A stretch of DNA of 22,785 nucleotides from Crinalium sp. (GCA_049646245.1 JBARVL010000638.1:1-22785); one strand, 5' to 3'; shown: positions 15,767 through 20,921, counted from the stretch's first letter. Notes: generated from the sequence alone by a model not told the origin. Translations and numbers: made by a program.

Positions 15767-16795
15767 ATGCACAACTTTCCAGCAACATCAAAAAACCTGC
15801 AACAATTTAACCAGATTTACAGTAATCTAGGCGAACTCATTGGCAATACGCCTATCCTACGCTTTAAGCGGCTATATCCTGGGCATCAGGTATTAGCAAA
15901 ACTTGAAGGTTTTAATCCTATTGGATCGATCAAAGATCGTGTGGCTTTCCACATGATTGACAATGCTATTAATCAGAAATTAATTAAAAAAGACACAGTA
16001 GTAATCGAGAGTACTTCAGGCAACTTTGGACTAGGACTTGCTGCCGCCTGTCAATTTCATCAACTTAAATTTATTGCTGTTGTAGACCCAAAAATTTCCC
16101 AAACTAACTTAAAACTGATGAAGTTGCGAGGAGCAAGTTTGGAAATGATTCTTAGACCAGATCAAACAGGCAACTACTTAGCACGGCGAATTGAACGAGT
16201 TAAACAACTGTGTCAACAAATTCCCAATCACTATTGGCCATGTCAATACAGTTCCCCAGAAAATCCTAACGCACACTACTACAAAACAGGCGAAGAGATA
16301 GTCAAGCAGCTTGACGGCATACCCCTTGATTACTTAATAGTAGCGACCAGTACAACAGGGACTATCTGGGGATTGAGCCGCCGCCTCAAAGAAGTTTACC
16401 CACATTTAAAGGTAATTGCAGTTGATGAACAAGGCTCATCCCTATTTGGCGGGACACCCGCTCCCAGATATCTCAATGGCATGGGAGCGGGACACCCTCT
16501 GCCAGAATTAGCCATAAAAGCTCATCAGCAACAGATTGTTGACCAAGTTATCCGTGTGGATTTAAAAGAAGCTGTCCAAGGTTGTTATGACTTGTTAAAT
16601 AGCGAAGGGATTATGGCAGGCGGTTCTGGTGGTGCTGTGATTGCTGCTTTAAAGAAGCTTATCCCCACCTTATCACCAGAAAGTTCGATTCTGATTATTC
16701 TTGCAGATCGTGGCGAAAGGTATTTGGACTCTTTTTATGACGAGGAGTGGGTAGAGAAAAAACTTTCTCCATCACCATTAACTCTTGCCGCCTAG
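15767..16795 (+). CDS. sbnA: SbnA-like PLP-dependent enzyme (cysteine-synthase fold; N-(2-amino-2-carboxyethyl)-L-glutamate synthase type, L-2,3-diaminopropionate pathway)
   Basis: Fold-type II PLP motifs are present: GNTPILRF, LEGFNPIGSIKDR (PLP lysine), ESTSGNFGLGLA and GGSGGAVIAA. Assignment to the SbnA subfamily rather than CysK/CysM rests mainly on the immediately downstream SbnB-type gene. Confidence 0.8.
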   Translation: MHNFPATSKNLQQFNQIYSNLGELIGNTPILRFKRLYPGHQVLAKLEGFNPIGSIKDRVAFHMIDNAINQKLIKKDTVVIESTSGNFGLGLAAACQFHQLKFIAVVDPKISQTNLKLMKLRGASLEMILRPDQTGNYLARRIERVKQLCQQIPNHYWPCQYSSPENPNAHYYKTGEEIVKQLDGIPLDYLIVATSTTGTIWGLSRRLKEVYPHLKVIAVDEQGSSLFGGTPAPRYLNGMGAGHPLPELAIKAHQQQIVDQVIRVDLKEAVQGCYDLLNSEGIMAGGSGGAVIAALKKLIPTLSPESSILIILADRGERYLDSFYDEEWVEKKLSPSPLTLAA

Positions 16796-16848
16796 AGCAA
16801 AAATAGCAGGATGTCAACCATTTCAACCTAAATATTTATTGATGCAAT

Positions 16849-17877
16849 ATGAGTGTTAATCAGACATTACAACAGAAAATTCTTTACCTCAGTTCTTCTG
16901 ACATCAAGCAATTGGATGGAGCGTCTTCCCAACTTTATCTAGAAGCAGTTAAGCAAGCACTGATCCTTCATGCCAATAGCCAAATTGTCCAACCCTTAAA
17001 GCCTTATTTGCGCTGGCGCGGTGATGACAACCATATTGCCGATCGCATTATCGCCATGCCAGCTTACTTGGGTGGAGAAAATCCTATAGCAGGTCTCAAG
17101 TGGGTAGGTAGCAAGCATGATAATCCCCGCAGTCGAAGTCTGGAAAGGGCTAGCGCCCTAATTATTCTAAATGATTCCGATTCCCATTACCCAATTGCTG
17201 TAATGGAGGGGAGCTTGATCAGTGGGATGCGAACGGCTGCGGTTACTGCGGTAGCTGCTCGTTACTTAGCTCCTGTTGAGTTTAACTTTGTTACCTGTAT
17301 TGGTTGTGGGCCGATCGCCAGAATGCAACTATTTACACTGCTAGAACAATTTCCCTCTATTACAACTATTCATCTTTTTGACCTCAATCCCTTGGCTGCC
17401 AAGAACTTAGTAGAGTCTCTCCATCAATTCTTCCCAACAGTCAACTTAAAAATTGCTCCAACCGCAGAGGCTGCTGTGCGAGCGGGGCAAGTAGTAATTA
17501 CTTGTACCATTACGTCCCAACCTTACATTCCCTACGAATGGTTGCAAAAAGGGTGTTTCGTCAGCAACGTTTCTATTATGGACTTGCATAAAGAAGTCTT
17601 TTTACTAGCCGACAAAGTAGTGGTGGATGATTGGGAACAGTCGAATCGGGAGAAAAAAGTAATTAATCAGTTAGTTAATGAAGGTCGCTTTGACCGCGAA
17701 CAACTACACGCAGAACTTGGTGAAATTGTTATCGGTAAACGTCCAGGTCGGGAATCGAATCAGGAAACTATCGTTCTTAACCCAATGGGTATGGCAATTG
17801 AAGATCTTGCCTGCGCCCAAGCCATTTACCAAAAAGCGATCGCTACCAATGTAGGAACTTGGTTGTCCCTCTATTGA
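16849..17877 (+). CDS. sbnB: SbnB-like NAD-dependent dehydrogenase (ornithine cyclodeaminase/mu-crystallin family; L-2,3-diaminopropionate pathway)
   Basis: OCD/mu-crystallin family signatures are ISGMRTAAVTAVAARYLAP, a Rossmann GCGPIARMQ and NPMGMAIEDLA near the C-terminus. The gene starts 53 nt downstream of the SbnA-like gene. Confidence 0.8.
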   Translation: MSVNQTLQQKILYLSSSDIKQLDGASSQLYLEAVKQALILHANSQIVQPLKPYLRWRGDDNHIADRIIAMPAYLGGENPIAGLKWVGSKHDNPRSRSLERASALIILNDSDSHYPIAVMEGSLISGMRTAAVTAVAARYLAPVEFNFVTCIGCGPIARMQLFTLLEQFPSITTIHLFDLNPLAAKNLVESLHQFFPTVNLKIAPTAEAAVRAGQVVITCTITSQPYIPYEWLQKGCFVSNVSIMDLHKEVFLLADKVVVDDWEQSNREKKVINQLVNEGRFDREQLHAELGEIVIGKRPGRESNQETIVLNPMGMAIEDLACAQAIYQKAIATNVGTWLSLY

Positions 17878-19189: not shown

Positions 19190-19430
19190 TTGATCTTGCC
19201 ATCAAGCATCAATGGTGATGAAACAATTATCAAAGCAGGTTCTTAGGAACAAGTTATCACTGCAAAACTAAGTCATTTGGTAGGCTATCGCTTCTTCTCG
19301 CCTTTGGGAAGTTGCGATCGCATTTCAAAGATTACCTAATATCGGAACTCACAATTTGACACTGCCCAAAAAATTCTTTTTTTTTATTTCCAGCCTAAAA
19401 CGTTTTAATTTTTCACACTCCTTAACTATC

Positions 19431-20921
19431 ATGCTGAACTTAATCTTGGCACTGTCTCCAATTTTCATCATTTTTATTGGAGTGCTTTTCTTCAAAAAAA
19501 GCACTTTACATAGCTCACTCGCTGCTTTAATATTCACTGGTTTAATAGCTGTTTTCGTCGAATCATTTAAAATTGATGTTTGGCAATTGTCTGAAGCAGT
19601 TCAATCAGCTATTATTCTTAGCCTTAGCGCCATCTTAGTGATTGTCCCTGGTCTTTATTTGAATACTATTGTTAGAGAGCAGAAATATATAGACAGGATG
19701 GCATTTGAAATTGGGAGAATGGAGATTACACCAGAAAATAAAGTTTTAATTTTGTTGTTAGGCTTTCTCCCTGCAGTAGAATCATTAACAGGATTTGGCG
19801 TATCCTTATTTATCGGTATTCCAGTTTTTTTTAAGCTGTTTACTAGGGATAAAGCATTTAAATTATCCCTTTTAGGAATGAATATTATGCCTTGGGGAAC
19901 TTTAGGATTAGCAACCGTTATTGGGTCGAATCTTATTCAATATCCTGTTAAAGAACTAGGAACAATTAGTAGCTTAACCAGTTTTTTTGTTTTTCCCTAT
20001 ATAGCTTTGCTGGCTTTATATATAATTGGTGGCTTAGTTAGTTTAAAAAAATATGCTTTGAGAGCTTTAATACTAGGATTAACTTTTGATTGTATCCTAT
20101 TAGCCAATAATTACTATCTTGCTCCAGAGACAGCAGGGGTATTTGCGGGAATGATTACAGGCTTTTTAGGAATTTGCTTGTCTTATCAAAAAAATAAATT
20201 TAATTTTAATATTATGGGGCAACTTGAGCGGATCAATTCCTTCCTGCCCTATGTTTTAATTTTAACTTTTATGAGTTTACTGCGTTTTATCCAACCAATT
20301 AATTATTTTCTCACTCATCTGCTCATTTTAAAAAGTGAAAATGTTAGCCTGAGCGTTTTTACTAATCCAGGGATTGTTTTATTGTTAGTAGCTTTAATTA
20401 TGCAGGCTATCCAACCCGTATCTATTTCTTTGAGTGAGACTTTGAAAAAAGCTCAACCTGCTTGTTTAACTATTCTCTGTTTCTTATTGTTATCTAGAAT
20501 GATGCTGGAGACGGGAATGATTAAACTAATCTCTTTAAGCATATCTAGCTATGCCAGCCAAAATCTCTTCTTATTCCTTTCACCTTTAATTGGAATGTTT
20601 AGTGGTTTTATAACAGGTTCAAATGTAGGCGGAAATGCACTGCTAATCAGAACCCAGAGTGAGATTGGTCAACAATTTGGGCATAACCTCGCCTTTGCTG
20701 CGGCTCATAATAGTGGAGCCGGACATATGGTGTTTTCCTCAATTCCTATGCTAATTTTTGCGATCGTTATTGCTAAAGATCTAAAAAATTTAGAAAATTT
20801 AGATGTGCAGGAAGGTCATTTGCTTAATTTTACTCTCAAAGTGGCGATCGGCATTTACATAGCGATTTTTGGAGGTTTATTAATTTTAGTCTCAAGTAAT
20901 TTGGACAATATTTTATTTTGA
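19431..20921 (+). CDS. LctP (lactate/glycolate permease) family transporter
   Basis: The protein is polytopic and very hydrophobic. GMFSGFITGSNVGGNALLIRTQSEIGQQFG aligns by eye with the conserved G.F.TGS.T.SNALF..LQ......G segment of GlcA/LldP. I prefer ATG 19431 (MLNLILALSPIF...) over the track's TTG 19356, which adds a Phe/Lys-rich non-membrane leader. Confidence 0.75.
   Translation: MLNLILALSPIFIIFIGVLFFKKSTLHSSLAALIFTGLIAVFVESFKIDVWQLSEAVQSAIILSLSAILVIVPGLYLNTIVREQKYIDRMAFEIGRMEITPENKVLILLLGFLPAVESLTGFGVSLFIGIPVFFKLFTRDKAFKLSLLGMNIMPWGTLGLATVIGSNLIQYPVKELGTISSLTSFFVFPYIALLALYIIGGLVSLKKYALRALILGLTFDCILLANNYYLAPETAGVFAGMITGFLGICLSYQKNKFNFNIMGQLERINSFLPYVLILTFMSLLRFIQPINYFLTHLLILKSENVSLSVFTNPGIVLLLVALIMQAIQPVSISLSETLKKAQPACLTILCFLLLSRMMLETGMIKLISLSISSYASQNLFLFLSPLIGMFSGFITGSNVGGNALLIRTQSEIGQQFGHNLAFAAAHNSGAGHMVFSSIPMLIFAIVIAKDLKNLENLDVQEGHLLNFTLKVAIGIYIAIFGGLLILVSSNLDNILF

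Follow-up and report, generated by a model that had tools for sequence, protein, structure and literature searches.

In a 22,785-nucleotide stretch of Crinalium sp. DNA (GCA_049646245.1 JBARVL010000638.1:1-22785; hereafter, the window, meaning this whole stretch at its full length), we analyzed four consecutive genes on one strand that encode homologs of SbnA and SbnB, the enzymes of L-2,3-diaminopropionate (L-Dap) synthesis, a heme-oxygenase-like di-iron oxidase/oxygenase (HDO) and a divergent permease of the LctP family (Table 1). The best explanation for the four genes is that they are a copy of a biosynthetic cassette that is self-contained and moves horizontally. The pathway that we propose, and that we believe about as much as we doubt, is one in which Dap is made, N-oxygenated and exported. 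The parts are of known kinds (a Dap synthase pair and members of the HDO and LctP superfamilies); no description of the combination, of the HDO clade or of the product turned up in the literature searched, where we found no paper that joins SbnA/SbnB or Dap with an HDO and none on the cassette (the term 'nitroalanine' gave irrelevant matches). An earlier note on this DNA, made from the sequence alone, had likewise not recognized the combination from any characterized pathway.

The same note had described four same-strand genes with gaps of 53 nt (sbnA-sbnB), 154 nt (sbnB-HDO) and about 240 nt (HDO-permease), and this layout is confirmed, the last gap being 241 nt when the permease starts at ATG 19431. 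Mechanical calling of open reading frames (ORFs) on the window extends the permease gene to a TTG start at 19356 (19356-20921). Because the gene call made independently for a Logan contig, whose SbnB is identical, chose the ATG equivalent to 19431, and because the permease homologs are 492-498 aa long, close to the 496 aa counted from this ATG, the true permease gene most likely spans 19431-20921. All four Pfam assignments are well above the gathering scores (E-values of 2.5e-62 for PF00291/PALP, 1.6e-57 for PF02423/OCD_Mu_crystall, 7.7e-26 for PF14518/Haem_oxygenas_2 and 2.1e-30 for PF02652/Lactate_perm).

Both proteins of the Dap synthase pair pass the respective equivalog cut-offs. The product of the first gene scores 359.7 bits against TIGR03945 (SbnA; cut-off 349.95) and fails the cysteine synthase models (cysKM, 231.9 vs 344 bits; cysK, 220.7 vs 351 bits), with all CysK, CysM and CBS models far under their cut-offs; its best match in the PDB is Staphylococcus aureus SbnA (5d84; 1e-82, 44% identity). 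Its residues K56, R141, Y161 and S195 align with K47, R132, Y152 and S185 of the S. aureus enzyme, where K47 is the pyridoxal phosphate (PLP) lysine and the other three residues select O-phosphoserine (PMC12414870). The product of the second gene scores 391.2 bits against TIGR03944 (SbnB; cut-off 326.9), fails the alanine dehydrogenase model ala_DH_arch (180.9 vs 409 bits) and the ornithine cyclodeaminase (OCD) model PRK07589 (95.4 vs 350 bits), and best matches S. aureus SbnB in the PDB (4m54; 1.9e-125, 57% identity over 336 residues). By these sequence comparisons, the pair is a genuine SbnA and SbnB, as the earlier note had proposed, and not CysK/CysM, an ornithine cyclodeaminase or an alanine dehydrogenase. 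Given the equivalog-level homology, the first step of the proposed pathway is predicted to be the joining of O-phospho-L-serine and L-glutamate by SbnA, yielding ACEGA, which SbnB would cleave oxidatively to free L-Dap and 2-oxoglutarate.

The resemblance to the SbnA/SbnB pair of staphyloferrin B biosynthesis in S. aureus thus extends from the adjacency of a PLP enzyme and an OCD-family dehydrogenase to the equivalog models and the key residues. However, the window cassette lacks the downstream nonribosomal peptide synthetase (NRPS)-independent siderophore (NIS) synthetase, NRPS or carrier protein, and contains the HDO and the permease instead; neither IucA/IucC nor Fur regulation, the features of a staphyloferrin B-type NIS cluster, was found for the window or the stand-alone cassettes. 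The expectation that no NRPS, NIS or ATP-grasp consumer of Dap is present was borne out by domain scans, which detected none of these domains (IucA/IucC included) among the window ORFs scanned. The window does encode a stand-alone FAAL-like AMP-binding enzyme, an ACP and a desaturase on the opposite strand (Table 1), on which the earlier note is silent. Pairs homologous to SbnA/SbnB include AlaA/AlaB of L-alanosine biosynthesis and ZmaU/ZmaV (zwittermicin) and SulG/SulH (sulfazecin). Among cyanobacteria, SbnA/SbnB are reported for only a limited subset and have been discussed there in connection with siderophores (PMC9414260).

The third gene was assigned in the earlier note to the Haem_oxygenas_2 di-iron enzymes, and this assignment holds: the protein scores 91.4 bits against PF14518 (gathering score 28.9), and residues E192, H202, E258, H289, D293 and H296 are invariant in an alignment (A1) of 14 diverse homologs. 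A six-residue E-H-E-H-D/E-H motif on the core helices alpha1-alpha3 defines the di-metal HDOs (PMC11363339), and by this comparison the di-iron ligand set of the window enzyme is complete. The family profile aligns the E192-H296 region with residues 213-321 of SznF, with the same ligand spacing. Among the SznF core ligands are, as we take it, H225 and E281. The others are E215, H311, D315 and H318 (PMC7848743). About 23-30 residues upstream of E192, at the position of the auxiliary helix aux-alpha2, there is an invariant acidic motif, R162-N-E164-V-V-D167-D168-E169 (RNEVVDDEV); at that position, the auxiliary helix of SznF carries the substrate-binding Asp185 and the seventh ligand Glu189 (PMC7848743).

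Structure and profile comparisons converge on the same set of relatives. The AlphaFold2 model of the HDO has a pLDDT of 77.6, the last ~40 residues forming a low-confidence C-terminal extension that is missing from most homologs. In a Foldseek search with this model, HrmI ranks first, followed by RohS, FlcD (3bjd, 8w1q) and SznF; in keeping with a helical heme-oxygenase-like fold, the probability is 1.00 for each of these as well as for CADD and BesC, but BesC, CADD, AetD, PolF and UndA rank far behind HrmI and RohS. When run against all PDB sequences, the HDO family profile matches only HrmI (4e-19), FlcD, RohS and SznF, leaving BesC, UndA, AetD, PolF and CADD undetected. The nearest structures are all enzymes of N-oxidation chemistry, their reactions being conversion of the lysine N6 amine to a nitro group (HrmI), of an amine to a nitro group (RohS), excision of an oxime carbon (FlcD) and N-hydroxylation (SznF).

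Among 1.84 billion representative proteins searched, the HDO clade comprises few members and has a sharp boundary, with 34 clusters at E <= 1e-30: members of the clade score above 120 bits, other HDOs start from ~70 bits at no more than 28% identity, and matches at the level of HrmI score 50-70 bits. HrmI and BelK (hormaomycin and belactosin biosynthesis), which convert the side-chain amine of lysine to a nitro group, are the best match in both sequence and structure, with a shared architecture of ~340 residues and the same E-H-E-H-D-H ligands. The predicted substrate of the window enzyme is the C3 compound Dap vs the C6 lysine, both free amino acids with a primary aliphatic amine. However, with ~20% identity and 49 bits against HrmI, and with the RNEVVDDEV motif invariant, the window enzyme belongs to a discrete, uncharacterized clade outside HrmI/BelK, even if it may work like HrmI. 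By profile and fold, SznF, RohS and FlcD/FlcE belong to the same branch of the HDO superfamily as the window enzyme but differ in substrates and genomic contexts; the window HDO lacks the cupin domain of SznF and, unlike FlcD, keeps both alpha3 ligands. Only about a dozen HDOs have a validated reaction, and Dap is not mentioned in the 2026 review of these enzymes (PMC13108848).

The fourth gene passes the gathering score of Lactate_perm (106.4 bits, in two stretches, vs the cut-off of 27), in agreement with the carboxylate-type LctP-family permease that had been predicted for it. The resemblance to the LctP/LldP/GlcA lactate-glycolate permeases (TC 2.A.14) consists of this Pfam domain and a length of ~490-500 residues. 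The protein scores ~91 bits against TIGR00795, far under the subfamily cut-off of 341.15, and belongs to a divergent LctP clade for which lactate should not be assumed as the substrate. Unlike its namesakes, the window permease clade is linked to the HDO and not to lactate or glycolate dehydrogenase genes. A structure search found no solved relative of the permease, and LctP relatives at <=42% identity (Aquella, Haliotispira) are not linked to the cassette; the permease clade is therefore not exclusive to it.

To place these genes in a broader context, we used the HDO alignment to search a single genome for each species and obtained 73 loci, 72 of them with an HDO match; six-frame ORFs of the loci were searched with the four window proteins, and a match within 5 kb on the same strand was counted as a partner. 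An SbnA-like protein accompanies the HDO in 52 of these 72 loci, SbnB in 38, both in 37, and an LctP-type permease in 24, where it lies directly 3' of the HDO gene and sometimes overlaps it. All four genes are found together in 17 loci, from Sorangium, Polyangium, Archangium, Glycomyces, Salininema, Actinomadura (two), Pseudomonas (two), Psychrobacter, Zooshikella (three), Burkholderiaceae, Lysobacteraceae, and two more gammaproteobacterial or mislabelled metagenome-assembled genomes (MAGs). These full sets come from Myxococcota, Actinomycetota and Pseudomonadota, and separate look-ups added cyanobacteria, for a total of at least four phyla: an Oculatellaceae MAG carries the cassette as well, and a Crocosphaera MAG has it with one additional ORF. 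One complete cassette, scoring like those of Zooshikella, comes from a contig labelled 'MAG: Rickettsia typhi' (L061), a label that looks doubtful; this cassette and the Zooshikella ones share an upstream ORF of 138 aa.

In the annotated contexts of Pseudomonas, Polyangium and Brenneria, the cassette stands alone among unrelated genes, and the genes can be packed more tightly than in the window, with 4-nt overlaps between the SbnB and HDO genes in Polyangium (L079) and between the HDO and LctP genes in Brenneria (L084). The SbnA and SbnB cut-offs are also cleared by the partners from Pseudomonas, Polyangium, Streptomyces fradiae and a pair of metagenomic cyanobacteria-like loci, and within this equivalog-tested set the two metagenomic loci hold the closest relatives of the window genes. 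Antisense shadow ORFs of high-GC genomes contaminated the all-versus-all clustering of the six-frame ORFs, and we accordingly relied on annotated contexts; in the LctP-type loci, conservation is limited to the four genes, all other clusters being such shadow ORFs or lineage-specific. The recurrence of the same gene set beside HDO homologs in many unrelated genomes makes the arrangement more than a chance one. The SbnA/SbnB pair, which the earlier note had called orphan, is thus part of a recurrent, horizontally spread cassette. That note had also placed the four genes in one operon. The conserved, often overlapping synteny in other genomes is the ground on which we infer a single operon in the window as well; a promoter and terminator scan of 15000-21400 gave signals no better than those in shuffled sequences and is neutral on co-transcription.

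The two halves of the cassette differ in their affinities. Identity of the window SbnA and SbnB to the S. aureus proteins is 44% and 57%, vs 34% and 29-32% to those of the Pseudomonas, Polyangium, Streptomyces and Brenneria cassettes, and the HDO is 47-50% identical to the HDOs of the same four cassettes. The 'Pseudomonas-type' SbnA/SbnB is found in a second cyanobacterial lineage (Nostochopsis, Fischerella). Because two SbnA/SbnB lineages are paired with one HDO lineage, Dap supply would appear to be what the HDO needs; these sequence affinities argue that the conserved unit consists of Dap supply plus this HDO, which would depend on the product of the pair and not on the proteins themselves.

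Carriers, too, are exchanged. The SbnA-SbnB-HDO triad occurs without any LctP-type protein in 20 loci, with EamA or major facilitator superfamily (MFS) carriers instead where the neighbors are annotated; in the metagenomic loci L002 and L003, two EamA genes follow the triad. This swapping is exporter-like, and an exchangeable carrier fits export, although we regard the direction of transport as uncertain. In S. fradiae, the triad lies within what is likely a peptide cluster, together with three ATP-grasp ligases, a luciferase-like monooxygenase and a flavin reductase, an MFS carrier, and dehydrogenases resembling phosphoglycerate dehydrogenase and glyoxylate reductase. The presence of ATP-grasp ligases beside this actinomycete triad fits a product that is still amino-acid-like.

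A variant architecture without SbnB was identified on the Sulfuriferula nivalis plasmid, where the order is HDO, GHMP kinase, SbnA-like enzyme (229 bits, under the SbnA cut-off), ATP-grasp, argininosuccinate-lyase homolog, sugar-phosphate isomerase-like protein, MFS, PhzF and a second ATP-grasp; this was the one real relative found in a search of plasmids. Signs of a similar layout were detected in Reinekea, Trinickia and Kofleriaceae, and a protein with a GHMP kinase fused to the HDO exists (P0053, 670 aa). The variant may make Dap or a comparable diamine independently of SbnB. In several cyanobacteria, the cassette is decaying: SbnA is truncated in Nostochopsis (L029 8529-8918); only fragments of SbnB remain in Fischerella muscicola (L030 9616-9875), with the HDO and the permease intact; in Limnofasciculus, the HDO is truncated and the permease match interrupted; and Pleurocapsa retains only fragments (decay loci include L070 4279-4785 and L076 10016-11043).

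Starting from free L-Dap, the second step of the proposed pathway would be carried out by the HDO which, with its di-iron center, O2 and reducing equivalents, could oxygenate an amine of Dap, most likely the beta-amine. This proposal draws on the nearest relatives, HrmI, RohS, FlcD and SznF, and on the genomic coupling to Dap synthesis. In HrmI, the target amine is bound on Fe1 and the route leads through an N-hydroxy intermediate to a nitro compound (PMC13108848); by analogy, the HDO would yield N3-hydroxy-Dap and possibly proceed to an oxime or nitroso compound or to 3-nitro-L-alanine. In the third step, the LctP-type permease would carry the small polar product out, again with an uncertain direction. 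The earlier note had predicted an oxidatively modified diamino acid and left N-oxygenation and C-C cleavage side by side; the nearest relatives favor N-oxygenation, and an oxidized form of Dap as the product remains a prediction from analogy. That oxidation of the beta-amine runs to completion, with 3-nitro-L-alanine as the end product, seems to us somewhat unlikely.

The nitronate of 3-nitro-L-alanine is an aspartate analog and a potent inhibitor of aspartate-handling enzymes, which is why an exported, horizontally transferred trait would make sense. The role of the product is likely to be that of an exported antimetabolite or signal, or of a building block in the actinomycete clusters, and not that of a siderophore. 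Taken as a whole, the full scenario, in which the cassette makes and exports an undescribed N-oxidized C3 amino acid (with 3-nitro-L-alanine or its N-hydroxy or oxime precursor as the best candidate) by a new HDO reaction on the smallest diamino acid, the product acting as an aspartate-mimicking antimetabolite, and in which the cassette has spread horizontally across cyanobacteria, myxobacteria, actinomycetes and proteobacteria and is reused in actinomycete ATP-grasp peptide clusters, is one that we put forward tentatively and with doubt prevailing over belief. A known parallel in chemistry is the L-alanosine (ala/aln) cluster of Streptomyces alanosinicus, in which L-Dap made by SbnA/SbnB homologs is N-oxidized at the beta-nitrogen (10.1101/763607; PMC11705231). 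However, the alanosine pathway employs carrier-protein-tethered Dap, a candidate flavin-type N-hydroxylase and nitrite supply by CreE/CreD, and none of these genes is present here; conversely, the alanosine cluster papers do not mention an HDO (10.1101/763607).

Several observations weigh against the sequence of synthesis, N-oxygenation and export. LctP-family proteins are classically importers, and intact HDO and LctP genes occur without a nearby intact SbnA/SbnB pair in Fischerella (L030), an Actinomycetota MAG (L038) and Arenibaculum (L037, a contig that covers only 3.8 kb upstream of the two genes); the permease might thus bring in a substrate instead. The low identity to HrmI is compounded by the fact that HDO relatives of similar distance perform very different reactions (PMC13108848), which makes the assigned reaction type a weighted guess, and the model confidence drops below a pLDDT of 50 over residues 168-193, beside the metal site. 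The intergenic gaps in the window are large, and co-transcription across them is presumed from synteny. Moreover, 17 Streptomyces loci encode members of the same HDO family (47-50% identity) without SbnB (L007, L010, L013, L024, L025, L027, L031, L032, L034-L036, L039, L042, L045, L049, L065 and L072), in a different conserved cluster with aminotransferases and FAD-dependent oxidoreductases of the amine oxidase and GMC types. In the one Pfam-annotated member (L080 1-13600), the neighborhood includes DegT and class-III aminotransferases, a glycosyltransferase, an amine-oxidase-like FAD enzyme, two GMC oxidoreductases, a ROK protein and a cytosine/purine-type permease. Nine of the 17 (L031, L032, L034-L036, L039, L042, L045 and L049) have a strong SbnA-like match of ~190 bits directly upstream of the HDO, a candidate PLP-enzyme gene. 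Given that these Streptomyces loci use the HDO without SbnB, Dap is perhaps not the sole substrate of the family, members of which may accept other amines.

The alternatives share much of this evidence and differ mainly in what the HDO acts upon and what it does. With the same Dap supply, the HDO might catalyze chemistry at a C-C or C-N bond, with export of a small product: an FlcE-like decarboxylation to 2-aminoacetaldoxime, formation of a nitrile or cyanide as by AetD or SktA, a BesC-like fragmentation, or a PolF-like ring closure. On amino acid substrates, HDOs with the same ligands are indeed known to catalyze decarboxylation, fragmentation and the formation of nitriles and azetidines (PMC13108848). 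FlcD, one of the nearest structures, removes an oxime carbon, and an LctP-type carrier would suit a small product such as a monocarboxylate. We nevertheless consider this unlikely, given that BesC, UndA, AetD, PolF and CADD are missed by the family profile and score far lower than HrmI and RohS in Foldseek, and that Dap appears to have no C-H equivalent to the site attacked by BesC and UndA. Another arrangement would have the permease import a carboxylate that the HDO oxidizes, with SbnA and SbnB using the product as nucleophile or acceptor or supplying Dap for a condensation. The uptake role typical of the LctP family and the persistence of the HDO and LctP genes, the tightest pair in the cassette, where SbnA/SbnB is decayed or absent would both be explained in this way. 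Still, it looks improbable in view of the equivalog-level scores of SbnA and SbnB with the O-phosphoserine-selecting residues intact, and of the 20 triad loci in which the carrier is exchanged, as expected of an exporter.

Two further possibilities concern the fate of the product. If Dap were oxidized to 3-nitroalanine that then releases nitrite, the cassette would generate nitrite or NO for N-N bond formation or signaling, in the manner of the aspartate-nitrosuccinate (CreE/CreD) pathway. Beta-nitro amino acids can eliminate nitrite, the relatives HrmI and RohS form nitro groups, and the triad does occur inside actinomycete clusters; but a dedicated HDO-coupled permease makes little sense for nitrite supply, and no lyase or diazotizing enzyme is conserved with the cassette, so we hold this quite improbable. 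Least credible to us is that the cassette is a vestige, or a precursor module, of a pathway of the staphyloferrin B kind to a Dap-containing siderophore or another metallophore. It is true that the window SbnA and SbnB are of the S. aureus type and that cyanobacterial SbnA/SbnB have been discussed with siderophores (PMC9414260), but IucA/IucC, NRPS and receptor genes are missing from the window and the stand-alone cassettes, and no Fur box was found upstream in 13 loci (best matches upstream of sbnA with at least 6 mismatches of 19; 6 of 19 in the window), hence no sign of iron regulation.

Synthesis, N-oxygenation and export of Dap, if correct, would bring a new small N-oxidized amino acid to the very few natural aliphatic nitro and hydroxylamino amino acids, and the metabolite might be an antimetabolite or signal of broad distribution. 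The HDO clade stands out by an unusually clear predicted substrate, provided by two well-understood neighboring enzymes, and by a minimal four-gene context, so that the product should be easily found by heterologous expression. The system is minimal, widespread and directly testable, and hence of high practical interest; genetic systems are offered by the cultured carriers Pseudomonas sp. 18175, Brenneria uluponensis, Zooshikella ganghwensis, Sorangium cellulosum So ce26 and Polyangium fumosum. Furthermore, the genomic evidence points to a capacity for free L-Dap synthesis, outside siderophore and NRPS pathways, in a member of the Oculatellaceae. [quoted passage not shown]

Table 1. Features of the window and of related loci
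Feature	Sequence	Coordinates	Strand	Families and remarks
sbnA-type PLP enzyme, 342 aa	window	15767..16795	+	TIGR03945, PF00291
sbnB-type NAD-dependent dehydrogenase, OCD/mu-crystallin family, 342 aa	window	16849..17877	+	TIGR03944, PF02423
Heme-oxygenase-like di-iron oxidase/oxygenase (HDO), 385 aa	window	18032..19189	+	PF14518
Divergent LctP-family permease, 496 aa from ATG 19431	window	19431..20921	+	PF02652
Upstream intergenic region, 586 nt, presumed cassette promoter	window	15181..15766	.	no recognised regulatory element
CHAT-domain protein gene	window	13882-15180	-	beside cassette
CHAT-domain protein gene	L083 (Oculatellaceae MAG)	1070-2368		beside cassette
CHAT-domain protein gene	L086 (Crocosphaera MAG)	8527-12498		beside cassette
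Weak methyltransferase-like ORF	window	12016-13014	-	E 8e-4, under Pfam cut-off
Two ORFs without family	window	11062-11748, 11745-12008	-	
Stand-alone AMP-binding enzyme resembling fatty acyl-AMP ligases (FAAL-like)	window	9060-10973	-	
Fatty-acid desaturase	window	8047-9030	-	
Acyl carrier protein (ACP)	window	7304-7669	-	PF00550
784-aa protein	window	2703-5057	+	C-terminal 170 residues VanX-like D-Ala-D-Ala dipeptidase (Peptidase_M15, 1e-38)
SbnA-SbnB-HDO triad in likely peptide cluster	Streptomyces fradiae CP065958 (L001)	108-12150		
SbnB-less variant architecture	Sulfuriferula nivalis plasmid SGTM_pl1 (L081)	8001-17017		

The closest relative of the window locus is the Oculatellaceae cyanobacterium MAG GCA_036702875.1 (L083), which encodes a permease with 97% identity and shares 95.6% DNA identity with window positions 15473-21926. 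In this contig, a 3.6-kb segment between the CHAT gene and sbnA (2447-6042), which encodes a LysR-type regulator and an aspartoacylase (NF002601, 391 bits), replaces 215 bp of the window (15258-15473). These two genes were considered as possible members of the cassette and rejected, being missing from the window and from all other loci; an aspartoacylase beside a pathway for a possible aspartate mimic is suggestive, but this is a single locus. In the region upstream of the window sbnA, promoter-like matches are no more common than in shuffled sequences, and an Rfam scan of the whole window detected no riboswitch or other RNA family.

Beyond the cassette, similarity between the Oculatellaceae contig and the window stops at the CHAT gene. 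The adjacency of this gene to the cassette may be due to chance, CHAT genes being common in cyanobacteria. The lipid-type set of FAAL-like, ACP, desaturase and methyltransferase-like genes (7304-13014) was also rejected as a part of the cassette, given that the sequenced flank of the Oculatellaceae contig holds nothing equivalent, and is probably unrelated to the cassette. Farther upstream, the 784-aa protein combines a long N-terminal part for which no family match was found with the C-terminal VanX-like dipeptidase domain.

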